A stretch of DNA of 63,997 bases, the filler included, from Stramenopiles sp. TOSAG23-6 (lineage: Eukaryota): assembly GCA_900128565.1 (NCBI GenBank). It is 13 parts of 13 records of this genome, joined end to end, with 100 filler letters (N's around TTAATTAATTAA, not from the genome) between each part and the next. Parts side by side here need not be neighbours in the genome. Positions count along the whole stretch, not along the records: positions 4,968 to 9,827 come from LT637032.1; 12 more parts are not named here. One strand, given 5' to 3'. The notes below the pieces were generated by a model. The model was not told the origin of the DNA and did not search any database. It saw only the letters and a program-made list of their open reading frames with translations. The position numbers and the translations under genes were made by a program. Position 1 is the stretch's first letter, and each line of letters starts with the position of its first letter. Below, in pieces: positions 4,868 through 62,508 of the stretch.

Positions 4868-4967
4868 NNNNNNNNNNNNNNNNNNNNNNNNNNNNNNNNN
4901 NNNNNNNNNNNTTAATTAATTAANNNNNNNNNNNNNNNNNNNNNNNNNNNNNNNNNNNNNNNNNNNN
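4868..4967. other. Artificial contig linker (N-run/TTAATTAATTAA/N-run). Also at 9828-9927, 14788-14887, 19742-19841, 24695-24794, 29645-29744, 34589-34688, 39533-39632, 44475-44574, 49416-49515, 54356-54455, 59296-59395
   Basis: Identical 100-nt six-frame-stop spacer about every 4.95 kb; contig lengths decrease slowly. Confidence 0.98.
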
Positions 4968-6877: not shown

Positions 6878-9376
6878 ATGGGAATCGCTGATTTTGAAGG
6901 AGAAGAAAGAGAGTCTGATTATGGTACTATTCTTAAAGTTGCTGGGCCCCTTGTTATTGCTGAGAAAATGAAGGGTGCAGCAATGTACGAACTTGTGAGG
7001 GTTGGCTACGTAAAGCTTGTCGGTGAAATCATTAAGTTGGAACGCGACACAGCTTATATTCAGGTTTATGAAGATACATCTGGTTTAAGTGTAGGTGACC
7101 CTGTATTGCGTAAACGTCAGTTGCTAAGTGTTGAATTAGGCCCTGGTATCATGAATTCCATTTACGATGGTATTCAACGGCCTTTGGACACAATAGAACA
7201 GGTTTGTAATTCGTCCTTCATTCCTCGTGGTGTTGACGTGCCTTCNCTAAGCCGTGATAAGTTATGGAATTTCAAACCTCTTAACTTTTCTGAAGGAGAG
7301 CCAATATCCGGAGGATCCGTGTTTGGTGAAGTGTATGAAAATGAAATTTTCACTTCCCACAAAATCATGTATGCTTTCAACCTTCAATTTCAAATTCATT
7401 TTTTTTATACAAAATTTTGTACCTAAGGTTTTCTTTTGTGACATATTTTCCAAAAATACATGGTCCCTCCTAACTTATTTAATGGTGGTGGTACAGTGAC
7501 GAAAGTGTATGGGAACTTAAGTGATGGCCATGATGAATGGAATGTGGACGAACCTGTTCTCGAAGTATTAGATGAAGTCACTCGCAAGAAACACACCTGT
7601 ATGTTATTTTTTTGGTACGAAATTTTGTACCTAATGAAATTTTTTTTTTTGAATTTTTAACCCTACCCCTACATTTATTTTTTTCAATATGGATTTGTTT
7701 TTTTAAAAATTATACCTAAAACAATTTGAAATTTGAAATATTTTTTCGCATTACATTAACTATGGCACACTTTTGGCCTGTTCGTATTCCTAGACCAGTC
7801 AAGGAAAAATTGGCTGGTGATTCTGCTCTCATTACTGGGCAGCGTGTCATCGATGTATGTGTTCAAGTGTTCAAAGAGACTAATTTCATTTTTTTTTTCT
7901 TTTTTTTTTCATTTTTTTTTTCTTTTATTTTTCTTTTTTTTTTCTTTTTTTTTTCTTTGAAAATTGTATACCAAACTTTTTTTTTATCCAAATATATATA
8001 TATATATATATATTTCACAATACATGTACTATTTCCATCAGTCTTGGGAGGTACATGTGCAGTTCCTGGAGCTTTTGGATGTGGGAAAACAGTTATTTCA
8101 CAAGCTCTCTCGAAATTTGCAAATACTGATGGTATTATATATGTTGGCTGTGGTGAACGAGGCAATGAAATGGCTGAAGTCTTGAACGATTTCCCAGAAT
8201 TAAAAATGGAATTCCCAAGAGGAAGTGGTAAGCAAGTTGGTGTAATGAATCGTACCTGTTTAGTAGCAAACACATCAAATATGTACGTTTTTATCATCAA
8301 TTTCCAAATTTNTNTTTTTTTATAAAAATTTCGTGCCTAACAAAAAAAATATAAAAAAAACATATTTTTTCACAATGTATGCCCGTAGCTGCACGCGAGG
8401 CTTCAATTTACACTGGTATTACTCTCGCCGAATATTATCGTGATATGGGACTCAACATTGCGATGATGGGTGACTCAACATCTCGTTGGGCAGAAGCTCT
8501 TCGTGAAATTTCTGGACGTCTCGTACGTTTTCATTTCAATTTCGAATTTATTTTTTTTTTCATACGAAATTTTGTACCTAACAAATTTTTTTAGATTTTT
8601 GAAATATTTTTCACAATACATGGGGAAATGCCTGCTGATTCTGGATATCCTGCATATTTGGGCGCTCGTCTTGCAGCATTTTATGAACGTGCTGGGTGCT
8701 GTAGTTTACTGGGGAGTCCTGATCGGCGTGGAAGTGTTACGGTGGTTGGAGTATGTTTTATTTTTTTCAATTTTTTATCTAAATGTTTTTTTCGTACGAA
8801 ATTTTGTACCTAAAGATTTTTTTTTGAAATGTGTTTTCACAATATATGCTGTCTCTCCACCTGGTGGAGATTTTTCAGATCCTGTCACTTCGGCCACACT
8901 AGCTATTGTTCAAGTATTTTGGGGACTGGATAAAAAACTTGCACAACGTAAACATTTCCCTTCCTTGAATTGGTTAACATCCTACACGAAATATGAAAGT
9001 GTTTTGCTACCTTATTTTGAAAATATTCAAGCAGGGTATAAAGACCTCCGTGCCACGTGTCGTCAAATTCTTCAAATAGAAGATTCTCTTCAGGAGACTG
9101 TATGTTTTATTTTTTTTTAACAAAAAAATCGATTTGTTTTTCGTACGAAATTTTGTACCTAACAAATTTTAAGTTTTTTTTTTCAAATATTTTTCCAAAA
9201 AACATGTTCAATTGGTTGGAAAAGATTCATTGTCCGAAGATCAAAAAGTTGTTCTCGAAACTGCGAAAATTATTCGAGAAGATTTCCTTCAACAAAATGC
9301 TTTTACGGAGTATGACTACACATGTCCAATTTATAAATCAGTTGGCATGCTACGTGTCATCATTCACTTTTATCAT
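6878..9376 (+). CDS. ATP6V1A: V-type ATPase catalytic subunit A, 3'-truncated. Exons 6878-7368, 7462-7598, 7757-7854, 8026-8282, 8381-8522, 8622-8750, 8848-9099, 9206-9376
   Basis: GAFGCGKT P-loop, [34 protein letters not shown] and GAVSPPGGD are restored on joining the exons. Confidence 0.97.
7369..9205 (+). other. Seven GT-AT introns: 7369-7461, 7599-7756, 7855-8025, 8283-8380, 8523-8621, 8751-8847, 9100-9205
   Basis: Boundaries are fixed by conserved V-ATPase A residues; all start GTAYG and end CAT or TAT. Confidence 0.9.
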
Positions 9377-9501
9377 GTACGTTCTCGTATTACATTAGGG
9401 TTAGTTTTTTTTTTTTTTTTTTTTTTTAAACCCAAAATTTTTTTTTTTTTTAAAATTTTGTTCCCAAAAATTTTTTTTTTTTTTTTTTTTTCACAATACG
9501 G

Positions 9502-9827
9502 ATGGATTTATTTTTCAAAGTGTGTCCGATTCCAGAGGAACGTAAACAAAGAGTTCATTTTCATGATTTTATGATGAATGTTCATAGTCGAATTCGTGCA
9601 GTTAAAGATAATCAATTATTGCAACAGAAAAAATTACAAAAATCACAAAATCAAACATTTACTGGTAACTTGGATTTATCAAATGTACGTTTTTATCATT
9701 TATTTCAAAAAAAAAAAAAAAAAAAAATATTTCGTACGAAATTTTGTACCTAACGATTTTTTTTTTAATTTCAAAAAAAAAAAAAAATATTTTTTCACAA
9801 GATATGAATCCGATGCAATATCAATTG
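9502..9827 (+). CDS. AFG1: AFG1/ZapE-family ATPase, internal exons (GT-AT intron 9685-9805)
   Basis: MDLFF ... [15 protein letters not shown]. Confidence 0.8.
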
Positions 9828-9972: not shown

Positions 9973-11704
9973 GGGTTTTACATCCACCGAAGTTGAATTT
10001 TTAGTTAGAGAATCTGATACTGATGGTGATGGATCCGTTAACTTTTATGAATTTGCTCCCCTATGTTATGACATGCTTGTAGAGGTTATTGCAAAACAAT
10101 TACCAGATGAAGAAGAAGAAAGAATAGCAAATCAAAAGTTGATGGATGCGAATAAAAAAAAACTTGCCAAATTACTACAAAAACGATATCGAGGATATCT
10201 AGGTCGCCAAAAATCAAAGCAGCGCCGAGCATATCTAAATCGTGACTATAAAAAAAACGACAAAGTTGAAGTTTTATACGTATCAAATGGGTTTTGGTAT
10301 CCTGCCACTGTAGTTAAAAGGTACGCGGGTGGTTTAGATTCTTTTGGAAATTCTAGACTAGTGAACTCTTATAAAGTTCGTTGGTTGGTTGATAATTCCA
10401 TAGATGATAATATACCGCGTCGTAGAATGCGTGAAGGTAATGAACGACATTGGATTCTACATGAACGTTTGAAAGAGAAAGCTCGGATTGAGGCTAAAAT
10501 GGAACAGTTACGAATGGAAGTAGATAGAAAAAAGAAACGGAAAGAAGAACAATTAAAAATGATAGAAAGTTTTTGGGAAGCTGGATTCTCTGGCCCTCTT
10601 TTCCAAGTACAATACTCTGGCGAAACAGATGGGAAAACTGGTATTAGACACGGTGTAGGTAAAATAACTTGGCCAAATGGGGATATTTATGAAGGGGAAT
10701 TCAATAATGGCCTAAGACATGGCAATGGGACAATGTCGGGAAGAAAAGAAGGATCTCGCGAGGGATATATTTACAGAGGTCAATGGAGGAATAGTTTAAA
10801 ACATGGATTGGGTAGAGATGTACGTTTTTATCACTTATTCCAAATGTATTACTTACATGTATTGTTTAAGAATGTATCATTTAAATGTATCATTTAAATG
10901 TATCATTTAAATGTATCATTTAAATGTATCATTTAAAAATGTATTGCTTTACATTGTTCAAATTTTGTAATGGTATAATAACTTAACACCATTTTTGTGA
11001 CATATATGTTTTACTCAATATGAGTATGGTTCATGTGGATTTTATGAAGGTAAATTTTGTGATGGATTATATTCAGGGAAAGGCACACTGGTAACAACAA
11101 GTGGGGTCTATCAAGGACATTTTGTAAAAGGACAAAAAGAAGGCAAAGGAAGAATGAAATGGACATCTGGTGCATCATATGATGGTATGTGGCATAATGA
11201 TAAATTGCATGGCAGAGGACAATATATAGGGCGTAATCCAAGTACGTCTTTCATCATGAATTTCAAGTTTTAATTTCAAAAATAACCCTAATTTCTAAAA
11301 AAATTCTAAACAATTTGAATTTCTATTTTTTCACAATATATACACAACAAAGCAATATGATGGATTTTGGGAATGTGGTATTCGTTGCGGAACTGGTACT
11401 CAGGTGTATGGTAATACTATCGATCAACAAACATTTGTATTGAAAGAAGTGCTCAAGAACAAAAAAGATGTTATCCCTTTAAAATATCAAGGTGACTGGG
11501 TAGATGGTCAATGGCATGGTATGTACGTTTTCATCATTATTTTTTTTTTAAAGTTGTTTAAAAATGTTTTGTACCTAACGTTCTTTTTACTGAAAAACGA
11601 TAAAACGATCACAATACAGTGGTATTATTACACATATAGTTAATATGAAAAAGACTTCTAGACGGGGAGAATTTAGGTTAGGCAAATTGCACCATTGGAT
11701 GTAG
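9973..11704 (+). CDS. EF-hand + IQ + Tudor-like + MORN-repeat protein, 5'-truncated. Introns 10820-11021 (GT-AT), 11242-11341 (GT-AT), 11523-11619 (GT-AG)
   Basis: DTDGDGSVNFYEF; LQKRYRGYLGR; repeated YEGEF..G.RHG.G continuing across the joins. Confidence 0.8.
10871..10936 (+). repeat. Intronic 13-bp tandem repeat (AATGTATCATTTA), about 5 copies
   Basis: Directly visible. Confidence 0.85.
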
Positions 11705-12069
11705 ACAAAACATTTCATATAAAAAGTATTAATGAAATGAGGCTTCAATTTTCAATTTTCAATTTGTTTTCGTACGAAATTTTGTAGCTAATCAAAAAAA
11801 ACAAAAAAAACAAAATTATTTGCAATAAAAAAACTCAAAACAATTTAATTAATTTTGAAATTTATATAATAATTTATGTTTTTGTTTACAAAACAAATCC
11901 TGATATGTTATGTATATACCCGACTCTTTAGTTTGACAACATGGGATGCGTACTATAAGGGTAAGATTTTTTATATGAGATTTTTTATATGAGATTTTTT
12001 ATATTTTTTTTTTGTTGATGGAGAATTTGTCCTAACAAAAAAACTGTTTACAAAAAAAAAATTTAGATC

Positions 12070-13094
12070 TTACTCATCCAAAAAAATACCAGCCATGACA
12101 TCTCCCCATGCTCGTCTTTGAACATCACGAGCATTCCAACCACCCGCGGCTTTTGCGTGTTGTCTTTTCTTTCGTGCCCTACTAGTTTCCTCACCTGTCC
12201 CTATAACGTAAAAAAATATTTCAAAAAAAAATATTGTTTGTTAGGTACAAAATTTCGTACGAAAAAAAAAATTTTAAAAATTGTCAGTAACAAAAACGTA
12301 CATGCGTTGCGATTTCGTCTACTTCGAAATGAATGCATCAGAGGTACAGGTTGTGCTGTTCTCATGGCCCCATGAAATGGTTGATTTGTGTTTTGCGAAT
12401 TTAATCCTAAAAGAGCACCAGATGCAACATCAGCACCACCAGTTGACTGAACAGTTGATTGAGTTACGGATTCATTTACTATTGGGAGCGGTGCTATTTC
12501 TTCAGCATAGGATTCGACAATTCTAGATCTATGGCGGCTTCTACGCTCACGACGATGTTGTTTCTTTGATAGGAGAGACTCCTTTTCTATACGATTGGAT
12601 TCTTCACGTTTTTTCTTTTCAAGTTCAGTGGCTTGTCTCTCTCCCTGTGCTTTTTTAGAACTATTTAAGTCAATTTCGTCACGATGCTTTCTTCGGTATC
12701 GTTCTACTTCACGTTTTGTCGCATCTTCATCTACATGGAAAGCCAACTTATGCACAATCTCCTCTCGTGTTTCCAAATAATCATTAAATGCTCGAAGTGT
12801 TTCAAAGTCTGTCTCTGTTTTGTTGTACGATGCTAAAATACTCTGACGGATTTTGAATATTCGATCACAGTCCATTTGTGACTTTGTCTTTGTACTAAGC
12901 CCCGCTTTTGTAATAATTTTATTACATACTGGACATGGTACAGAAGACCGGCCCGTGAATATACGATTAATACATGTTCCACAAAAACAATGGCCACACT
13001 GCGATATAAGAAAACGGACAGTTCTGTCAAAATAACTAACATTTCGATTCTGACACTTCTGGCAAACTGCTGAACTTGAAGTATTTCCTCGCAT
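12070..13094 (-). CDS. MNAT1: CAK/TFIIH assembly factor MAT1; GT-AG intron 12201-12301
   Basis: RING CGHCFCGTC..CPVC; FNDYLETREEIV; the last exon gives AAGG..RRAW. Confidence 0.9.
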
Positions 13095-16667: not shown

Positions 16668-16758
16668 ATGTATTTTGGAAAAATATTTGAAAAAAAAACC
16701 GTTAGGTATAAAATTTCGTACGAAAAAAAAATCGAATTTGAAAAAAAATAAAACATAC

Positions 16759-17457
16759 ATTCCTCCTAAAAAACTTGTAAANACTGGGAAGACNGANAGA
16801 AAATATAACTGATAGTTCATTGCTCNTGTGGTCATGAAAGACGTTAAACAAAAATGTATTTNGAAANCATATNTTTTTTTAAATTTTTTGTTAGGTACAA
16901 AATTTTCATACAAAAAAAAAAAAAAAAAAACCCTAACCCTAGTAACCCACATTTGTAAACCAAGTCCCATTCACTTGACCAAAAAAAGTATTCGAATCAT
17001 TATCTTTCATTACCAAGAGAAAACCTGCAGTAAAACTACATGAACATATTATAACTCCATAAATCCAATTACGACGAGTGACGTTACCAAAAGGCGTTCG
17101 TAGATTGATGAATAAGTCGACAGCAATTGCCGTAAGACAACAGGATGAGCCAGTCAGACAAAACTGTGTAAAGAAACTGGCCAATTTACCCTCAGGGCCA
17201 CTGCAATAACATACATCATCTTTAAGTTCCGTGTTTATCACACTCAAGTTAAAGCCAATATCATAGCACGCTTTAAGNAACAGAAGTGGGTTTGGNTGTC
17301 GACGAAANGAAGGTCTAAGCATATAGGTTAATATAACAAACAAAGCACAAAAGCAAGATATTGTATTTCCAGTCACTGTAATCCTAACCATTGAAAGAGT
17401 ATTGAATACCAAGTATGTGTCTTTGTATTCATCATTTGTGCAGTGTAATAGATCCAT
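16759..17457 (-). CDS. GPCR-like 7TM receptor, N-terminal ~5 helices (GT-AT intron 16854-16950)
   Basis: Multiple TM segments; ISCFCALFVILTY, FFTQF, AVDLFINLRTPF. Confidence 0.65.
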
Positions 17458-19961: not shown

Positions 19962-21494
19962 AATAGCAACAAGTAATCGCCCCCCAAATGATTTATATTT
20001 AGATGGTTTAAATAGAGAATATTTTTTACCTTTTATTCAAACTTTACAATCACATTGTAAATTATATGACATGAATGAAATGAAAAATATAAAAATGATG
20101 GAAAAAACAGACCCTAACCCTAACCCTAACCCTAATCAAACAACTTTCAAAAAAAATAAAACAATGAAAAAAATTGATCATAGGAGACTTTCTACTGCTT
20201 TTAGTGATACGAATGAAACTTCATTATATAGATTTCCATTATCTAAAAAAACATCAATTGAATTTTATGATTTTTTAAATCGTAATTATGTAAAAAATTT
20301 GTATGTTTTTTTTTATATTTTCAATTTTTTTTTTTGGTTTTCATACGAAATTTTGTACCTAACAATAATTTTTTATTATCCAAAAAAAAAAAAAAAATAT
20401 TTTTAACAAAATATAAAATTTACAAAAATGAGTATACCAACCATCTTTGGTAGACATGTTACTATTGAAAATGGCTGTATTGATGGTGGAATTTGTTATT
20501 TTAGTTTTGAAGAAATTTGTGGGTACTCTAGTGATAAGAATGCCACGTGTTATCGTGCGATTTGTGAGCATGTTTGTTCTCATCATTTAATTTTTTTTGA
20601 AATGTTCAGAATTTTCAAAAAAAAAATTTTTTTTTTTTTTGAAATTTAAATTGTATACAAAATTGTATAGTAATACCTAACAAAAAAAAAATAGAATTTG
20701 ATATATTTTTTTACTCTACATTTCAATATAATTGCAATTGATGGAATACCAATATTAAATGCATTACCATCATGGGTCGTTCCATCAAGTGGTGGTCATA
20801 ACGCAGCTAGGAGATTTATTACAATGATTGATCAATGTACGTTTTTATTTTTTTTTCAATTTTTTATCGAAAAATTTTTTCATACGAAATTTTGTACCTA
20901 ACGAATTAAAATTTTTTTTTTTCACAATAAATGTTATGAAAGAGGAAATTTGTTATTATGTACTGCTAATGCAAAACCTGATGAATTGTTTATTTCAGAT
21001 GCAGCTATTAGTGCAACACCAAGTCCAATGGTGACTGATATTGATTATAATCCTTTAATGGAAACTGAAAGAAAGGATTTTATGAGTACAAATAAAAAAA
21101 ATAAAAACAATAAAAAAAATGAAAAAAATGAAAAAAATAAAAAAAATGAAAAAAATGAAAAAAATGAAAAAAATACTACAAATGACACAAACAATAATAT
21201 AGACCCATCACAAAGTGTACTAAATAATGATTCTAGAAATATTGCATCAGTAAAAGAATTAGAATTTGCTTTTCAAAGAGCTGTACGTTTTTCATATGAT
21301 GAATTTCGAATTTATTTTTTTATATCATGAATTTCGAATTTATTTTTTTCATAAATTTTTTTTTTGTATTTCACATTTTTTTTTGACCAATTTCAAATGT
21401 AAAATATTTCTTCACAATACACACATCTCGTTTAATTGAAATGAATAGTACAACGTATGTAGAAAAATGGAAAGAAAAATATAGAAATGAATAA
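19962..21494 (+). CDS. AFG1: AFG1/ZapE ATPase, C-terminal part. Introns 20301-20414, 20572-20721, 20837-20932 (GT-AT) and 21283-21422 (GT-AC)
   Basis: IATSNRPPNDLY, FLPFI, ARRFITMIDQCYE and FAFQRATSRLIEM are restored. Confidence 0.88.
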
Positions 21495-35906: not shown

Positions 35907-36218
35907 TATTTCAAAGAGATGTTGCAGTCCTTTCTAATATTTCTAATTCTTTGGGATGAATATTTATAATAGTATGAGCCAGAAGGACTGTCGTAAATAC
36001 CTGTAGCTGTTCGTACAAAAGGTACGAGTCACTCTACGACTAGTCAAATCAAATCTGTTGACATCATTATTGACAATTCACATTAAGCGTCACAATTTTT
36101 CAGATTTTCGTGTGTGAAAAACGGCGCAACATCGGCGCACAACATCGGCGCGGCGCGACAGACTGTCATTTTTTTACTTAGACGCCATTTTCCTTTTTTC
36201 TTGAAAATTGAATCAACA

Positions 36219-37427
36219 ATGTCTTATCTGGAAAGTATTGGATTATATCAACGGAAGGATGGATCCTTTTACGAGAATGGTTGTGCTGTACCATTTGTTA
36301 TTCGTGCTCAAATTGTAGATTTGCTGTTTAAAAGTAGGATTGAAAAGCAAGAGAAAAACTTTAACAGTGTTCACTACATTGAGAATGAAGAATTCTATAT
36401 TAGAGACAAATTTCATGTATGCCGCAAAACATACACAAAGTACTTTGATGCGTTTCTTACAATATTTTCAGACGCTTCAAAGTATTTCAATATTAGAAAT
36501 AAGGATGAATTTTTGAGAGTATACGCTTTAAGCATAGATTCACTACGACCTGACGACAAGAGAGAAAGATCACTACGAAGTGAAGTTATAGATGTTGTGT
36601 TGAGGGATATAGTAGAAAGAGATAGAAGTGGTTTAATTAGAGAATATCAAAATGATCTTGGTGAAGCAACTGGTGTATGGCTTTGTGAATCTGCAATCTG
36701 TGTAAGGCTTAAGAAGTTGGGATTAACTAGAAAAAAACTATATAAAAACTTTGCTGAGAGATTAACTGAAGAGATTCTAGAAGACTTAGAGAGATATGGT
36801 CAGGTTTTAAACGCGATAGACCACAAGAGAATACATTACTTTGATGAATCTGGTTTCTGTGGTCAGCTTATAGGGAGGACATATGCTCGAAATGATCCGG
36901 GTAGAAATACAACCAGTGATACAGTTAATCCCAGTCGAACTCATTATACATTAATGGGTGTTACTTCAATACGGAAATCAAAACCTGCTTTGCTATGGAA
37001 GACAATGAAAGGTGGTGCCAAGCGAAGTGATATGCTCAAATTCCTATGCTCTAAAAGGGTTCTTTCTAGTTTCAAACGTGGAGATGTCCTTGTTTTAGAT
37101 AATTGCCGTACACACAAATTTCAAGGGCAGGAGGCCCTTGAAGAAGTATATGGTTTAATTGGGTGCCATGTTTTCTTTTTACCTGCATATCATCCGATGT
37201 GTAATGGGATTGAATATCTTTTTGGGTGGTTAAAGAAAATACTCCGCCGTGTCGACACATTCACTAGAGATGACGAATCTCTACTTACCTATGTTGAATA
37301 CTATTTGCGAAAAGTAAATACAAAATTAATTAAATCATTTTACAAACTTGCTGACAAAAAATTGAAAAAAGAAATGAACCTACTAGATACCAGATTGGAG
37401 GCTATTAGGAATGTACAAAATGAATAA
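36219..37427 (+). CDS. DDE transposase (DD37E) with paired-domain-like N-terminus
   Basis: YFDESG, VLDNCRTH, FLPAYHPMCNGIE; 37 residues lie between the second D and E. Confidence 0.92.
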   Translation: MSYLESIGLYQRKDGSFYENGCAVPFVIRAQIVDLLFKSRIEKQEKNFNSVHYIENEEFYIRDKFHVCRKTYTKYFDAFLTIFSDASKYFNIRNKDEFLRVYALSIDSLRPDDKRERSLRSEVIDVVLRDIVERDRSGLIREYQNDLGEATGVWLCESAICVRLKKLGLTRKKLYKNFAERLTEEILEDLERYGQVLNAIDHKRIHYFDESGFCGQLIGRTYARNDPGRNTTSDTVNPSRTHYTLMGVTSIRKSKPALLWKTMKGGAKRSDMLKFLCSKRVLSSFKRGDVLVLDNCRTHKFQGQEALEEVYGLIGCHVFFLPAYHPMCNGIEYLFGWLKKILRRVDTFTRDDESLLTYVEYYLRKVNTKLIKSFYKLADKKLKKEMNLLDTRLEAIRNVQNE

Positions 37428-40162: not shown

Positions 40163-43100
40163 ATGAAGACAGAAAACATTACCGTGTCTGTTCGTTTTCG
40201 TCCCATGAATGAGCGGGAGTTGAATAAAAATGCAAAGACGTCGTGGGGTTGGTATGTTTTATTTCCACATTAAAGTATTTGCGTGTTGCATTATGTACTG
40301 GTTTGTGTTTCTATCGAGTCAAGCTGTGAAAATACTTTCTAACATCAATTTGTATTCATTTGTATTATTTTTTTGTCCTCCTATTTTACACTACACAGTA
40401 TGACAGAGCATAAAAGTGTGTGTCGCAAAGATAAAGATGGTAAATTAGATACATCAATGGCATTTTCATATGATCATGTATTTAATGGTGATGATGGGAC
40501 AAGTCATGTATACAATCAAGTGGCAAAACCGATTGTTCAACAATTCTTGGCTGGCATCAATGGAACAATTTTTGCTTATGGTCAAACCTCAAGTGGAAAG
40601 ACATATACAATGCAGGGTGATGGTACAGTAAAAGGTTGTGGAATTCTACAAAACAGTGTTACTGAGCTATTTGAATGTATCAAGCAAAATCAAAAACGTC
40701 AATATATTATTCATGTCTCATATATTGAAATATATAATGAAAATATTAGAGATCTTCTACGAAGCGACGGACCAATGTGTAAAGTACGTGAAGATAGAGA
40801 TCGCGGTATATATGTTGAATCATGTGATTTATTAGTACTTAATGCTTCTGATGTGTTATCTCTATTATCTCGTGGTGAAAGAAATCGACACGTGGCATCA
40901 ACTGCAATGAATGATACATCGAGTCGGTCACATACTATTTTTAAAATGTCTCTGGAATCTCAAGAATTAGAAATTAATTCAGAGACTGGAGAGTCAACTA
41001 CAATAGGTCCCGTGCTACAAAGTTCTCTAAGTCTTGTCGATTTAGCAGGATCAGAAAATGCAAAAAACACGCGCGCTAGTGGAACTCGACTTCGAGAAGG
41101 TGGAAATATTAATAAATCATTACTTTCATTATCTCGTGTAATGTGTCAAATATCAGATGGACATNCTCATGTACGTTTTTATTAGACATTTCAAATGTAT
41201 CATATCATGTAAATGTATTTTTTTTACAAAGAAAATTTTGTAGCTAACGAATTTCATACTTGAAAGATATTTTTTCACAAAACATCCAAGTTTCAGAGAT
41301 TCAAAATTAACTTGGATACTAAAACCATCTTTAGCTGGTAATTGCCGAACTGCATTAATTGCATGTGCAACTTTAGCTGATCAATTTGTAGAAGAAACTC
41401 AATCAACGTTAAAATTTGCAAGTCGTGCTAAAAACATTAAAACAAGTGTTGCAGTGAATATGTATGTTTTATTTTTTTTTTTCAAATTCGATTTTTTTTC
41501 GTACGAAGTTTCGTACCTAACGATTTTTTTAGATTTTTTTTTAATATTTTTCCAAAATACATGATTTTAGATGATAAAGCAAGAATGAATCAATTGAATA
41601 AAGAAGTGAAGCACTTACGTGCAAAACTACGTGTTTTTGAAGAAGGAAATTCAAACTTCAAAAAGAGATTAAGTGGTGGCAGTACAAAAGGATTGATGAG
41701 ATTTGATGATGATGATGAAATGACGCATAATCAAAAATTACAAACACAATTACATTGTTCTGAGAATGAAAAGTTGAAGCTTGAGCAAAAAGTAAATGAT
41801 CTAAAAAATATGATTGTTAAAAATGGGTTTTTATCTCGTACTAAACATTCACAAAATGGAGGCATGAAACGATCTGGAGAGTGGATGGCACCTTTAAGTG
41901 TTGAAAAATTGCGAGGAGCGAACAAAAGGCGTAAGAAAATTCGTGGCACTTGTATGATTTATTTTCATCATTTTAATTTTAAATGTATTCTTCAAATGTA
42001 TTTTTTTGTATCATGTCTAACAAATTTCAAATTTGATATACTTTTTAACAATATCTGGTATAATTTATCTGATAATTTTAATTGGCGAGATGACATTGTT
42101 GGTGGTGATAAAGATGAATTTAAGAGAATTAAAGCATCTCATTCACAAGACACGAAATCAATGTTGGATGGAAAGTTTGCTAAATTAGCTAATGGTTGTG
42201 ATGAGAATGAAAATGTTGTAAATACTAAAAAATCCGAAATTCCAAAAGTAAAAAGAAGCGTAAGTTTTGACGTTAATTTTGAAAATGATAATTGTAAAAC
42301 ACCAACACAAAAAAAAACACCAGTGTCTCGTTTTTTTAGTGTACATGCAGCATTAACACCAAGTGCAGATACACCACGTAAAGCAGCTTTAAAACAAGCT
42401 CTTGTTAATATGTACGTTTTCATCATGAATTTCAATGCAAATGTTTTGTTTCCATTTTTTTTTTATTGTTGAAAATTTTATATCTAGGAATTTTTGTAAC
42501 GTTTTCTTTTATGATCTATTTTTCACAATACATGGAAGAGAAATTAGAAATTGCAGATGCCAAGTCTGTAGAATCGAGCAAAATCGTTGAAGATATGAAA
42601 ACAAAATTAAACGAAATTCAAGAAAAGGCTGAAATGGCTGAAACGCAAAAAAAAGATTTAGAGAAAGCAAATGCTGAATTGAATGCTGCTGAATTAGAAG
42701 TAGAGAGAGCACGTATGTTTTGTGTATCCCTATTTTGAAAAATATTTTTCAAATTTCAAATGTATCTATTTTTCAAATTTACAATTTCTGATGTCTCCTA
42801 CATTTCTAATATATTATTTTTTCTAATACATTTCAAATTTATGTATATATATATCCCCGAAACTATAGTAATGAGAGCTGAAGATTTGAGTGGAAATTTG
42901 TTGGAAATTCATCAAGCAAAACAACTTGAAGAAGAAATTGAACAACATGAAAATGAAATTCAAAGACATGAAGATGAAAAAAGGTTGGTTGAAATGGATC
43001 AATATCGCAAAAGATTAGCACAAATGGAAGAAGAAAAAACTAATTTAAATGAAAAAAACTGCGAAAATGAAAAAAATTTTGATAAGATAAATTTGAAATT

Positions 43101-44474: not shown

Positions 44475-44715
44475 NNNNNNNNNNNNNNNNNNNNNNNNNN
44501 NNNNNNNNNNNNNNNNNNTTAATTAATTAANNNNNNNNNNNNNNNNNNNNNNNNNNNNNNNNNNNNNNNNNNNNAAAAAAACAAAAAAAACAAAAACTTT
44601 TTATGTATTTTTTTTTCATCATGACATTTTTTTTTTTTTTTTTTTTTTCATACGAAATTTCATACCTAACAAATTTTTTTTAGATTTTTTTTCGAAATAT
44701 TTTTTCACAATATAT

Positions 44716-44841: not shown

Positions 44842-45294
44842 TTTTAAAATTTCTTAGGTACAAAATTTCCTATGAAAAATAAATTCGATTTTTTTGTTTA
44901 AAAAAAAAATTTTACAATTTTGTTTTATATAATAATATATGATTTGTTAACATAGTATTTAATAAAAACTAAAAATAAAAATTTTACATTTTTGTTTTTT
45001 ATTTACAAATTGTTTTTGATAAAACAATGAATGAATTTTTTTTTTTCAATTTTGATTTTGTTTTCGTACGGAATTTTGTACCTAATGGGTTTTTTTTGAA
45101 ATATTTTCCAAAATACATAATAAAGAATGAATGATTCATTATATATATAATTATTTTCATTTACCAATTTTGATATTGAATGGTGTTATTTTGGGTTGCG
45201 GTTTTAAATTTTTTGATTTCGCTTCTTTTTTTGATTCTTCTTCTTTAATTTTTATATTGTTTTTTTATTTTTCCCAATTTTCGTATTGAATCTA

Positions 45295-57088: not shown

Positions 57089-57518
57089 AAATCAATTGAC
57101 GTATTTCCTATCGTTGAATTGATTGAATCTTGAGAGAGAAAAGTAATTTGAGGAGGTGATAAAAATGGAACACCAATCAAATAATATTCTTGTTCACTCA
57201 CAACCAATCAATAAAAAAATTCCGACAATTTTGTTTTTTCACGTTTTTCGTGACATTTCCTCATCATCAAATTAGGTATGAAATATTTCGTACGAATTTC
57301 AATAATTTTCGATATATATCCTATAATTTGTACCAATGGTACTTATACAAAAAAACAAATCATTATACATAAAACTACATAATAACATTGTATCATTATT
57401 TTATCAAAAAATCAACAAAATCTTATTAAAGGATCACTACTTGTACAAAAACACAAAAAAAATCTCCAAAGATTTTTTTGGTACAAAATTTCATACCTAA
57501 AGAGTCAAATTCATTTTT

Positions 57519-58394
57519 TTACCATTTCTTTTCTCTTGGTTTCGAATAATCTATGCGAATTGATCGGCCGAGTAAATCAGTACCATTCAATTTGACAAAT
57601 TCATCAACACCATCAGATGTTGCAAAATCAATAAATCCACAACCTTTAAATTCACCAGATTCACGATCAGTCAACCAACGAATTGATGTGACCTCACCGC
57701 AAGCTTTTGCAAATTCGCGCATCTGATCTTCATCAATGTTAAAACTGAGATTACCCATGAAACATGTTTTACAGTTATCTGGACGTTCAGATAATCCACG
57801 TGGCGCACGAGAACCTCCACCAGATTTTTGTGCACGTGGTTTTGCAGGGTTGATTTTGACTGGGCGACCGCACAAATCTTGTCCCTCTTTAAGGCATGCT
57901 TTTGCTGCTGCAGCAGGAGAATCAAAGGTAAGAAAACCAGAACCAAAGAATTTTCCAGTTTCTTTATCGGTGAGCCAATAAATATCAGTTAATTCACCAC
58001 AATCAGCAAAGAATTCCTTGACAATATCATCATTAATGTCGTAGCTGAGGTTTCCGCAGAATACTTTAGGATTCCCATCCGCAGAAGCGATAGGAGATGG
58101 TTTTTGTACTACAGGTGCTTCAGAAACAACTTCTGGTGTAGCTTCAACTTTTTGCTTCTTAGCAACAGGTTCTTCTGCCGCTGGAGTTTCAGCAGATCGT
58201 TTTGCAGCAGCTTTTGCAGCTTTCTTTGCGGCCTTGCGTGCAGCTTTGCGTGCTGCTTTTGCTTCTGGAGAATTATCTTTTTCTACCTTGACTGGAGCTG
58301 CAGCAGCGCCATTCTTTGCAGCAAGTTTTGCTGCCTTACGTGCAGCTTTACGTGCAGCCTTTGCTTCTGGAGAGTTATCTTTAGTAGCAGCCAT
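57519..58394 (-). CDS. Nucleolin/NSR1-like protein with two RRMs
   Basis: VFCGNLSY and KGCGFIDF RNP motifs; K/A-rich N-terminus. Confidence 0.85.
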   Translation of the reverse strand: MAATKDNSPEAKAARKAARKAAKLAAKNGAAAAPVKVEKDNSPEAKAARKAARKAAKKAAKAAAKRSAETPAAEEPVAKKQKVEATPEVVSEAPVVQKPSPIASADGNPKVFCGNLSYDINDDIVKEFFADCGELTDIYWLTDKETGKFFGSGFLTFDSPAAAAKACLKEGQDLCGRPVKINPAKPRAQKSGGGSRAPRGLSERPDNCKTCFMGNLSFNIDEDQMREFAKACGEVTSIRWLTDRESGEFKGCGFIDFATSDGVDEFVKLNGTDLLGRSIRIDYSKPREKKW

Positions 58395-58749
58395 TATTAT
58401 AGGATATATATATTAGTTTTTGTATATAGAATTATATATATAGAAATCAACCCAGAACAAACGAAAACGATTGTCAGGTCAAAAACGAAATGTTCACTGG
58501 CTCTAAAAGGGCTGAATCAATTTGGAACAAACCTGTTATTTTCACAAATTTGATCGGCAAAATCAGTTACAGAATGTCTCTCAGACTCTCTCTCTCATAT
58601 TTACAAGTATAATACTATAAAGAAAGCATCAAAATACTTTTAAATAGTATTTTCAATCTATTGAATTTGATATATATAAACAAATCCGTCGTATACGCCA
58701 CACAAAGGACCATCGTGATTACCTCTACTTACATACTTGACTATAAAAA

Positions 58750-59752: not shown

Positions 59753-62508
59753 TTCTCCTAAAAAGGTCCAGTGAAACTCGAGGTGAAGAACTAGATGATT
59801 TTGATTATGCTTTATTATCTGGAATCTTTGTTGCAAGTGCTAGATTGTTACATGAAAAAAAGGTACGCAAATCTAATTTAGATAGCCATGAAAAGTTGAA
59901 AAAAGATTTGGGTACAATTTTAATTAAGAATCTCGTGCCATTGTACGTTTTCAATTTCATTTTGTTTTTATTTTTGGTACGAAATTTTGTACCTAACGAT
60001 TTTTTTACTTAAAAAAATATTTTTCACAATACGGACTCCGTAAGTTTCAGGCTGATAGTGCCACCATTGAACAATTAGTATCTTTGCCTCGATATTTTGA
60101 CATTGAAAGTTATGAAGTTCATCGTCAGCAAAAAAGTTTCTCTAGACTTTTAAACATGTTGTCAGATTTATATTTAAAACACGGAGATGAACGCGTTTTA
60201 CAATCAATTTCAAACACATTTTTATTTCTAAAAGATGGAAAGCATTCTCTAAAAGACGAAGTCGTTGTACTCGCTCAGAAACTCACAAGTAATATAGTTA
60301 ATAGAGTTCAAGAACTACTACGTGATGATGAGACCGATTACCAAAAGGCACAATCTGTTAAAGAAACGTCATCAAAAATGAAGACTAAGGCACGCGCATC
60401 AAGTGTGAAAATTTCAAAAGAGAACGACAAAGAGACTAACCTTCTATGTTTCCTACGCCGTTTGCGAGCTTTATTTGAAAAAATTGATGTCAGTTCGAGT
60501 CTCCCCGCTAATCTATATAGCGCTTTACATACAGTCATTTCTCGACGCACTGAGGATGGCCTCCATTTACGTTCATATAGAGAAGATCCGCATTCTGGTG
60601 TTGTTGTGCAATCACTTTCTATTTTAGCGACTACATTGGGTCATGTATGTTTTTATCTTCAATTTCAAATGTATCAAACTTATTTTATTTTCGTACGACA
60701 TTTTGTACCTAACAGTTTTTTTTCGAAAAATACTTTTCACAATACAGGAAGTGTATACACTCCAGCGTCTTTTGGAAGATCAGTCAGATTCTGTCGGTGT
60801 TACCGGTGGCGATGATAATGAAGAAATGAAAGAAACCGATGAACTAGATGAAGCCCGGCTCATTGTAGAATCGTTAGGCAGCTACCGTGATAATATCAGT
60901 AATCGTTTATGCTCTATCATGGCAATTGATAGTTCCGATTGTCAGTCAATCAAGGAAATAAATCTCATCCGTGCATATAAACTTCAAGCATATTCTATCG
61001 GATTTGATATGCGCTCACTTTTTAGTGAAGCTGCTTCAAACGGTAGTGGACCGTATCAGAAAGATTCAACATATAATGAAAAAGGTTTCATATATCCACT
61101 CAAATCTCTTCAATATGACATGCCACCAACACTTATCCGTGATTGTCATCGATTTTTCAATGAAGAAATGGTCACAGGACGTGAGCGAAATGCAAAGCTG
61201 CTTTTAAGAAAAGAGAGAAAGAAAAAAGGAGATACATTTGCAGAAAAAATGGCAAAAGCTGAGCGTAATACAGCATTACTTCGATTATCAGATTCAGAAA
61301 TTTCAAAGACGGTATTTCCTCTTTTCCCAGCATTAGCTCGAGTTCTCAACTCTAATCCTAAGGCAAAACGTGAAGCAGCTGTTCTTGTATCTTTAATTAA
61401 TGAATCAGGAAAAACTGGATCCGGTATTGTAAATGATTGTACAAAGACATTACAGCGTCGGGTCGGTGGTAAAGAATCATATCTAAAAGTTCAAATGGCG
61501 GCACTTCGTCATACATATCGACAATTGCAAACATTAGCTGAAACCGGATCTGATGAAGATGAGGATTCCGATAATGAAGAATCGAGTTCTGCTTCTAAAG
61601 TATACCAAGCATATACAAATCTCCTGTCTCTCGCTAGTCGTCTTTCTTCGTTCTATGGAGTCGGTACTGTACCTGTAAATCTCCGCGTCGCATGGGAAGA
61701 TCATATATTAAGTGGTGTAAAGTTCGCGTTTCAGCAACTACCTAATCAATTAGGATTCCTCGATGTGATGGATTATTATGTGCGTAAATTGCCAAAAGCT
61801 GCCAAATCCAGTGTATTGAAAAAGTTTGAACTTTTGGCAGATGAAATGGGTGTCATAAAAGCCGCGCGTGAGAATCAGTTGAAAGTTCGTGCTCAAGGCA
61901 ACCATTCTGATGATGAAGACGATGATGACGATGACGTAAGTGAAAGTATGTGGGCTGCGTATACTGCTTTTCGTGACAGACTTGAAGAAGATTGTCAAAC
62001 AAATAAACGTAAACGTGGTGGTGTCGTTACTAAAGAATCGTTACATAAAAATGATGAAAGTCAACAAAATATTCGTCCGAGTAAAATATCTCGGAGATCT
62101 ACTGATGGATCGAGAATATCTCGAGAAAACAATGATACAGAATTTGCTATAAACAATCTCAGNGATGATGAGTCGGATAATGGTTTTGGTATAGAGTCAA
62201 AAAGTGCAAGTGCGCGTTTGATTGAAGCTGTAGACTCTGATGTGAGTGATTTTGATAATTCTATCGATCATGAATTTGGTAATTCTATGAGCAATAATCG
62301 CCGAAAACGACAGAAGACACTTAAACCTGAGTTATCATTTGCGAAGCATCGACGTCATAGTACACATAGGTCATCATATGATACATCTAGTGCTAGTTTA
62401 AAAAGTGGTCAGAAACGGTCCGCTGTGGATATTGACTCTGATGATTCAAGTGTAAATGAAGGAGATTACGATGGGCTTCCTGAACCTGTCATGAGTCAAG
62501 AGTTCTAA
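59753..62508 (+). CDS. Cohesin subunit STAG/SCC3, C-terminal part. Introns 59943-60034 (GT-GG) and 60645-60747 (GT-AG)
   Basis: LVPLLRKFQAD, LPRYFDIESY, KHGDERVL; acidic tail. Confidence 0.7.

Follow-up and report, generated by a model that had tools for sequence, protein, structure and literature searches.

Short, mostly GT...AT introns with a long conserved block at the putative branch site in a stramenopile genome

The AG at the 3′ end of introns is among the most conserved signals of eukaryotic genes, and the branch site upstream of it takes a limited number of familiar forms. The introns of hemiascomycete yeasts carry a GTATGT donor and a TACTAAC box, and U12-type introns have a donor motif of their own and a branch box about 10-25 nt from the acceptor. 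Introners, which have been described in Micromonas, Aureococcus, fungi and many aquatic protists, form families that are organised, in the accessible part of the report, around GY/AG sites (PMC9860276). A departure from AG comparable to the one described below, and different from it in kind, appears in the available portions of the reports on two other organisms. In the tunicate Fritillaria borealis, 95% of the introns depart from GT/AG at both ends with the core spliceosome preserved, and divergent U2AF paralogs read the new 3′ ends (PMC13326754); in the marine protist Amoebophrya, more than 60% of the introns are non-canonical and include repeated families, with no clear terminal dinucleotides, 8-20-nt inverted repeats joining the ends and 3-5-nt direct repeats, in a GC-rich genome (~54-58% in the cited genes) (PMC7789003). 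As for the branch site, the accessible part of a survey of 50 species reports extended branch boxes of at most 8 bases, and strong branch motifs only in intron-poor genomes, the intron-rich species all remaining below 22% for a shared hexamer (PMC2483917). Here we analyse a window of 63,997 nucleotides, filler included, from Stramenopiles sp. TOSAG23-6 (GenBank assembly GCA_900128565.1), in which a 20-nt element, TACGAAATTTTGTACCTAAC, lies at 8563-8582 (+), where an earlier note on this DNA had located it, within an intron of the gene for V-ATPase A. The analysis gives good support to an unusual picture, that of an intron-dense protist with mostly GT...AT introns that carry long conserved branch and 3′ blocks.

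That most introns of the window are spliced as GT..AT, and not at AG, is well supported by RNA, by homology and by reading frame. A 272-nt contig from a polyA metatranscriptome (X6 record 16) covers 8378-8522 and 8622-8653 at adjacent positions of the record, removing exactly the 99 nt of 8523-8621 (+; GTACG...ACAT), with a one-base G/G ambiguity. The joint from 8522 to 8622 skips an internal AG at 8593-8594 (+), which is unused as an acceptor, and leaves the residues continuous with those of P0004, a 639-aa protein encoded on a 2,258-nt contig. Two more contigs fit the removal of the following intron at 8751-8847 (+; V-ATPase A intron 6, GT..AT, also placed by homology): X6 record 17 has 129 unplaced letters between 8521 and 8847, the length of the exon 8622-8750, and X3 record 11 passes from 8749 to 8848 with a single intervening letter. 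The run contigs were compared with a 1.5-kb N-free piece, in which uncovered bins, such as 8978-9079 and 9590-9827, are uninformative. The kind of X3 is only guessed as DNA, and its contig with the spliced form of 8751-8847 means either that the run holds RNA or that an intron-less allele exists, that is, a presence/absence polymorphism; X3 record 11 and X6 record 17 also seem to differ in the last base of the upstream exon. Contig joints that go backwards were considered as lariats and rejected, as they come from other copies of the repeat.

When the nine V-ATPase A introns are cut from their GT to the end of the 3′ block, the gene reads as 627 aa with 0 stops, and 483 of 565 aligned residues are identical to P0004, with gaps solely at aa 186, 305-308 and 406 and none at a junction. 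Junctions 1-7, all seven of them GT..AT, are thereby validated to the residue, while homology validates neither junction 8 (...ACGG), where the alignment has its edge, nor junction 9, which is outside the aligned region. Throughout the window, a cut made where the 3′ block ends keeps the frame in 19 of 23 candidates (15 of the 17 confident ones), against one third by chance; of the four misses, two have a misplaced 3′ block, one is a duplicate donor and one has a flank riddled with Ns. These frames were called separately on each side of the intron by a codon-usage method, instead of by the longest upstream open reading frame (ORF), which mis-assigned frames, for example at 8751; a scan of ORF extension was uninformative for 3′ ends because T-rich introns are open in some frames.

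The earlier note had started from the premise of a lost AG, and the 26 complete introns agree with it: 20 are GT..AT, 3 GT..AG, 2 GT..GG and 1 GT..AA, a shift of 3 nt being possible for the ends beyond those validated. In nine of the 26, an AG downstream of the box is passed over before the true end is reached. As introns, these sequences are precisely removed from mRNA and open with a GT donor of extended U1/U6 type, and a terminal AG is not the rule among them. The exon context follows the form AT/G (slash, junction), with an upstream exon ending in AT in 17 of 26 cases and a downstream exon beginning with G in 16 of 26, so that the usual AG/G proto-splice site seems to have been replaced by AT/G, mirroring the AT end of the intron itself.

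The 20-mer is the middle block of whole units of 89-171 nt (median 101 nt, 81% AT). Three conserved blocks can be recognised, a 5′ GTAYGTTTT, a T-run plus C[G/A]TACGAAATTTTGTACCTAAC and, after a T-tract, a 3′ AAATATTTTTYCAMAATAYAT, with T/A-rich spacers of differing lengths between them; the distance from the 5′ end of the intron to the start of the motif is 35-61 nt, and the final C of the motif lies mostly 30-51 nt ahead of the 3′ cut. In the focal intron of V-ATPase A, all on the plus strand, the alignment sets the 5′ splice block at 8523-8531 and the T-run plus C[G/A] that precedes the 20-mer at 8553-8562; the CTAAC box occupies 8578-8582, with a computed position for the putative branch A at 8581, 40 nt before the last base of the intron, and the 3′ block (...GAAATATTTTTCACAATACAT), fixed by the frame test and the alignment, runs from 8600 to 8621 with the cut directly after it. 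Across 22 aligned introns, mean pairwise identity is 0.92 in the 5′ block, 0.43 in spacer 1, 0.71 in the T-run, 0.70 in TACGAAA (the left 7 nt of the 20-mer), 0.82 in TTTTGTAC (its next 8 nt), 0.92 in CTAAC, 0.60 in spacer 2 and 0.69 in the 3′ block. The four columns that precede the C of the T-run block have T at 88-94%; the C, T and A of the box are invariant in the 22 introns and its second A reaches at least 90%, and the donor is GTAYGT in all 26 complete introns bar one GTAAGT. Introns with drifted spacers and a drifted left half (8283, 11523, 41171, 46863 and 63420) keep TTTTGTACCTAAC or nearly so, retaining the right 13-17 nt of the motif, and the degenerate V-ATPase A introns 3 and 8 keep an A-run/T-run/GT pattern though their CTAAC is altered. 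Because drifted and degenerate introns preserve this right-hand pattern, some 13-17 nt of the motif look constrained, and the leftmost TACG looks like family heritage.

The earlier note had claimed that the 20-mer recurs, and the window does hold 31 matches when up to 3 mismatches are allowed (12 are exact; 21 lie on the plus and 10 on the minus strand); across 100 dinucleotide-preserving shuffles the expectation is 0.01, and no shuffle attained 31. Its orientation is also as claimed: a codon-usage model, with the window's 32 long ORFs as its training set, finds a coding flank on the same strand for 24 of the 31 copies, on the opposite strand for none, and no clear flank for 7. The same holds for its shape, given that TTCGTACGAA reads as its own reverse complement and that GTACGAAATTTTGTAC pairs with itself but for one G/T position pair. 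Of the 26 complete introns, 18 contain CCTAAC, 13 the 13-mer and 9 the whole 20-mer, and CCTAA occurs in 7 of the 9 introns of the homology-defined V-ATPase set. All these counts come from the 62,910 non-N bases (62.9 kb) of a fragmented assembly.

The suggestion that the copies descend from a mobile intron is upheld by their similarity over the whole length, by subfamilies that share spacers, by their number and by decayed copies outside genes. With 22 full-length units as the basis of a profile, 41 family members are found in the window, spread over some 13 unrelated contigs, with subfamilies whose spacers are near-identical. Subfamily-A copies lie, for example, at 16668-16758 (-; GTATGTTTTATTTTTTTTCAAATTCGA...), at 28187-28277 (-; exact 20-mer, GT..AT) and, on the contig of a kinesin-like gene, at 41462-41562 (+; GT..AT). 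Four decayed copies were found in non-coding DNA: one at 44641-44714 (+), in AT-rich DNA with no coding flank and no clear upstream GTAYGT donor; a partial one at 44846-44898 (-), without splice blocks and opposite in strand to both neighbours; one at 45048-45117 (+), without a GTAYG donor; and a partial one between two genes at 11745-11791 (+), with neither donor nor 3′ block. In three seawater runs, the intron bins reach a summed contig depth of ~8.6e3-3.6e4, which is not a copy number, against 0-8 in the exon bins. The near-identical subfamilies and the decayed non-genic copies indicate an introner-like family.

Our reading of the 20-mer, which we consider probable, is that it forms the central signal block of short spliceosomal introns and that its 3′ end is the branch site. 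The CTAAC box is very probably this site, with its penultimate A as the nucleophile; it is read so because it is a perfect consensus and the most conserved internal element, has a T-tract after it and stands at 31-52 nt from the acceptor, and the order of CTAAC, T-tract and cut is the usual layout of branch, polypyrimidine tract and acceptor. The motif had been described before as an internal intron element with a branch-like box, and it does end in CTAAC, with the T-tract next and a mostly non-AG acceptor. The distance then proposed for the branch A stands in part: it is indeed branch-like, and its range is 31-52 nt from the intron end, not the narrower 38-45 nt. In this view the introns make up a single homogeneous population, introner-like and of very high copy number, with an RNA layout of 5′ GUAYGUUUU, after about 35-60 nt a T-run plus C[G/A]UACGAAAUUUUGUACCUAAC, then a T-tract and 3′ ...AAAUAUUUUUYCAMAAUAYAU, and they are removed from the mRNA as GU...AU introns by a cut right after this last block, AG being neither required nor preferred and internal AGs being skipped. 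CUAAC would most likely pair with the branch-binding box of the U2 small nuclear RNA (snRNA), leaving the A at 8581 bulged as nucleophile, and the adjacent GUAC and A/U stretch (~12 nt more) would act as an extension under weaker constraint. This extension would probably be an extra contact for U2 or for a branch-binding protein, which could help commitment of the intron in the absence of an AG or U2AF-type signal, and the leftmost TACG would largely reflect shared ancestry among young copies.

Several points weigh against this reading. Two introns keep both end blocks without a recognisable motif, one at 11242-11341 (+), where no 20-mer can be discerned, and one at 42412-42533 (+), where it is strongly decayed (GAAAATTTTATATCTAGG); both are spliceable in this state, and the full 20-mer is therefore not strictly required. 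Conservation is inflated by the many copies that are young and almost identical, and it was judged among the copies of a single 62.9-kb sample of a fragmented assembly; moreover, the motif itself helped to find 17 of the 26 complete introns. The placement of the branch rests on sequence, as contigs cannot show lariats, and a search of the window for snRNAs gave 0 Rfam matches at the gathering threshold, which leaves the pairing with U2 as a deduction from the intron side.

In the usual U2, the nucleotides next to the branch-binding box would not pair with the bases upstream of CTAAC, so that either U2 has changed or a protein reads those bases. An extended duplex between U2 and the intron would take the form of a branch-binding region complementary to GUACCUAAC and to the bases upstream of it. 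One specific form of such an altered U2 motif had 0 matches in public metagenome contigs, an uninformative result given that this organism is absent from the collection: a scan of it for the donor, a gap and the right half of the motif returned only 8 loci, all of them chance matches, single-copy and with no 3′ block. The idea that the donor GUAYG pairs with C[G/A]UAC in the motif was rejected, since in a hand tally their two varying positions combine freely, C-A mismatches included. A broader proposal, which we put forward tentatively and with more doubt than confidence, is that the 3′ splice site has been re-specified as a whole: in place of an AG recognised by U2AF, a ~20-nt AU-ending block and a ~17-20-nt branch block would be read by co-evolved components, and one introner lineage with these signals would have supplanted or homogenised nearly all introns. 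Such components may include a U2 box with an added G for UACCUAAC and beyond, a U1 matching AU/GUAYGUUUU, and a U2AF1 that has been lost or has diverged. If this were true, an intron-rich organism would have signals of yeast strength, and its GUAYG...AY termini would echo the ends of group II introns.

Other explanations of the 20-mer have to be weighed against its role as a branch block. Pure shared ancestry would leave the motif beyond CTAAC without function, its conservation reflecting a recent introner spread that has not yet decayed. The near-identity of subfamily copies over their full length, including spacers such as CAAATTCGA (16758, 28277, 41462, 49572 and 54305), fits this well, as do the 41 members in 62.9 kb with contigs that break inside copies, the very large summed depth over intron bins in the three seawater runs (again, not a copy number) and the decay of the left half of the motif in older-looking copies. 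We nonetheless hold it to be rather unlikely, given that the right 13 nt stand at 0.82-0.92 where spacers stand at 0.43, and that V-ATPase introns 3 and 8 hold their A-run/T-run/GT pattern despite a changed CTAAC. Alternatively, the branch could lie close to the cut, as in the introns of diplomonads or parabasalids, within the 3′ block (...CACAAUAYAU), and the 20-mer would then be an intronic splicing enhancer or a protein-binding site. This would suit a block that is fixed relative to the cut while the distance of the 20-mer varies by ~20 nt, and non-AG acceptors would be easier to explain by selection at a fixed distance from a nearby branch; yet the block contains no YURAY-type match, whereas CTAAC is a perfect consensus and the most conserved internal element, and the T-tract comes after the 20-mer, where one would look for it if the branch lay there, all of which makes a branch in the 3′ block improbable.

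The palindromic character of the motif invites two further explanations, both with still less in their favour. As a DNA signal of a mobile element, the motif, and chiefly the TTCGTACGAA palindrome, would be a transposase or nuclease site used for self-copying. The decayed non-coding copies, one of them opposite in strand to its neighbours, point in this direction, and so do a DDE_3 transposase ORF in the window and the fact that the intron junctions are mutual reverse complements (ATGTAT...ATACAT), the latter only when the exonic AT is counted. Beyond the AT/G consensus, however, no target-site duplication was detected, the flanks agreeing no better within an intron than between introns (mean run 1.31 versus 1.36 after shuffling), a comparison that is powerless if the target is always AT; the transposase ORF shows no terminal inverted repeats around it and no likeness to the intron ends in its surroundings, and the palindromic left part is the least conserved of the motif. 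We regard such a DNA signal as very improbable. The earlier note had also raised a hairpin or protein site compensating for the lost AG; taken as an RNA hairpin, or as a symmetric site for a dimeric protein, the near-palindrome has in its favour that GTACGA and TTGTAC can make 6 pairs around an AATT loop, a stem that RNAfold draws in 2 of 6 folded sequences (41462 and 59943). The covariation expected from a hairpin is missing in the 30 copies compared: 79.0% of the cells are paired against 78.5% after shuffling, with 206 of 500 shuffles as high, and a single cell is compensatory. Of these 30 copies, 13 have the outer G-C pair and 10 have a broken C-G pair, the six single folds have z-scores of 0.0 to -1.3, RNAalifold gives 0 consensus pairs in the 22-intron alignment, and the right arm is retained as the left one decays; hardly any credence is left for the hairpin or the dimeric site.

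Read as introns with a branch block, the members of this family resemble introners, as characterised in the accessible part of PMC9860276, in being short, near-identical copies in unrelated genes, spliced in sense, sometimes outside genes and with splice signals of their own; they differ from those in that 20 of 26 end in AT and in that signs of target-site duplication or terminal inverted repeats were not found in the window. They also differ in that apparently all introns here share one architecture, including all nine of V-ATPase A. The near-invariant GTAYGT donor, the box ending in CTAAC and the tens of nt to the acceptor recall yeast introns, but the box has an extra C (TACCTAAC) and conservation reaches ~12 nt further upstream, and yeasts are intron-poor and use AG, whereas V-ATPase A alone has 9 introns here and the acceptor is mostly AT. 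With U12-type introns, the earlier note having placed the box between the U2 and U12 consensus, the family shares a loose resemblance of TACCTAAC to the branch consensus and the occurrence of non-AG termini; the likeness fails for the donor, which is GTAYGTTTT, for the 31-52 nt between box and acceptor, for the T-tract and for the fact that these introns are the majority class instead of a rare one. As in Fritillaria, AG has been broadly abandoned as acceptor, but the GT donor is here kept and strengthened, and the long branch block and 3′ block have no counterpart in the available part of the Fritillaria description (PMC13326754). In contrast to Amoebophrya, as far as the accessible text of PMC7789003 describes it, the termini are uniformly GT..AT, no covariation indicating pairing of the ends was seen and the introns are 81% AT.

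CCTAAC, at 18 of 26 introns, exceeds the 50% threshold for a strong motif given in the accessible part of PMC2483917, despite the density of introns, and an intron-dense genome whose branch block is conserved over 13-20 nt does not obey the rule stated there; plausibly, the window is an exception to this rule owing to introner spread. No published description of GT..AT introns with such blocks was found in the introner, single-cell-genome, non-AG and extended-branch literature, supplementary tables being outside the search, and none appears in the available parts of PMC5778133, PMC8237690, PMC5269757, PMC8163842 and 10.64898/2026.04.17.719054; the motif string itself gave primer matches only. 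An introner family equipped with a full set of non-standard signals would be of interest for several reasons. An uncultured, free-living marine protist with mostly GT...AT introns offers a natural system for an AG-less second step of splicing, and introns that skip internal AGs while having a strengthened donor can test how the 3′ site is chosen. Moreover, because standard gene predictors assume GT-AG, they would miss such introns, and the gene models of this organism and its relatives are probably wrong.

The remaining introns of V-ATPase A, all on the plus strand, illustrate the variation of the family. Intron 1 (7369-7461, GT..AT, motif TACAAAATTTTGTACCTAAG) has a junction validated against P0004. 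Intron 2 (7599-7756, GT..AT) contains the motif at 7616 plus a degenerate copy ~41 nt from its 3′ end, intron 3 (7855-8025, GT..AT, placed by homology) has the degenerate motif GAAAATTGTATACCAAAC, and in intron 4 (8283-8380, GT..AT) the left half of the motif has decayed and the right half, TTTCGTGCCTAAC, is kept. Intron 7 (9100-9205, GT..AT), placed by homology, has the exact 20-mer; intron 8 (9377-9501), with a putative 3′ cut after ...ACGG, has the degenerate motif AAAATTTTGTTCCCAAAA, and intron 9 (9685-9805), GT..AT by rule and likewise with a putative cut, has the exact 20-mer. Elsewhere, three members end in AG: one at 11523-11619 (+), with the left half of the motif lost and the right 13 nt perfect, one in a MAT1-like gene at 12201-12301 (-), with the exact 20-mer, and one at 60645-60747 (+). 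Another with the exact 20-mer, at 59943-60034 (+), ends in ...ACGG. Internal duplications place two copies of the 20-mer in 24145-24301 (-; at 24182 and 24245) as well as in intron 2 of V-ATPase A, and 21283-21422 (+) contains a duplicated spacer segment; in introns with such duplications, the copy nearest to the 3′ block keeps the usual distance. Short telomere-like TTAGGG/CCCTAA stretches occur inside family introns at 7655-7675, 9395-9410, 11280-11295 and 16925-16945. A longer intron at 10820-11000 (+) has the donor block of the family and no recognisable 20-mer, and contains a tandem array of ~5 copies of a ~13-nt unit, AATGTATCATTTA.

The window itself is a chain of about 13 unrelated contigs, sorted by length from 4,867 down to 4,840 bases and joined by twelve N44+TTAATTAATTAA+N44 linkers (at 4868, 9828, 14788, 19742, 24695, 29645, 34589, 39533, 44475, 49416, 54356 and 59296), so that genes on either side of a linker are not linked in the genome. 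A truncated copy of the intron family adjoins at least 7 of the 12 linkers, and the assembly therefore broke on this repeat. The DNA is AT-rich (GC 0.29-0.38) and eukaryotic, with nuclear genes for V-ATPase A, a kinesin, 6-phosphogluconate dehydrogenase, MAT1, THOC7, NIP7 and the cohesin SCC3, and further genes for RCC1, ankyrin and LRR proteins. Its sequence is present in two small DNA runs from a single organism, probably those behind the assembly, in seawater DNA runs and in seawater polyA metatranscriptomes, and the best named relatives of its V-ATPase A are those of diatoms (66-72% identity), a weak hint to the taxon.

The transposase mentioned above is an unbroken ORF of 446 aa at 36087-37424 (+), with a DDE_3 domain (PF13358, E 1.5e-14). 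At 57522-58412 (-), an ORF of 297 aa has two RRM domains (E 7e-30), and just beyond its stop, at 57476-57495, there is a weak look-alike of the motif without CTAAC. Finally, an ORF of the Rdx family (PF10262) at 30813-31307 (-) reads C-T-N-U if its in-frame TGA encodes selenocysteine, which matches CxxU, a motif that we take to be typical of the Rdx selenoproteins, and the ORF is probably a selenoprotein gene.

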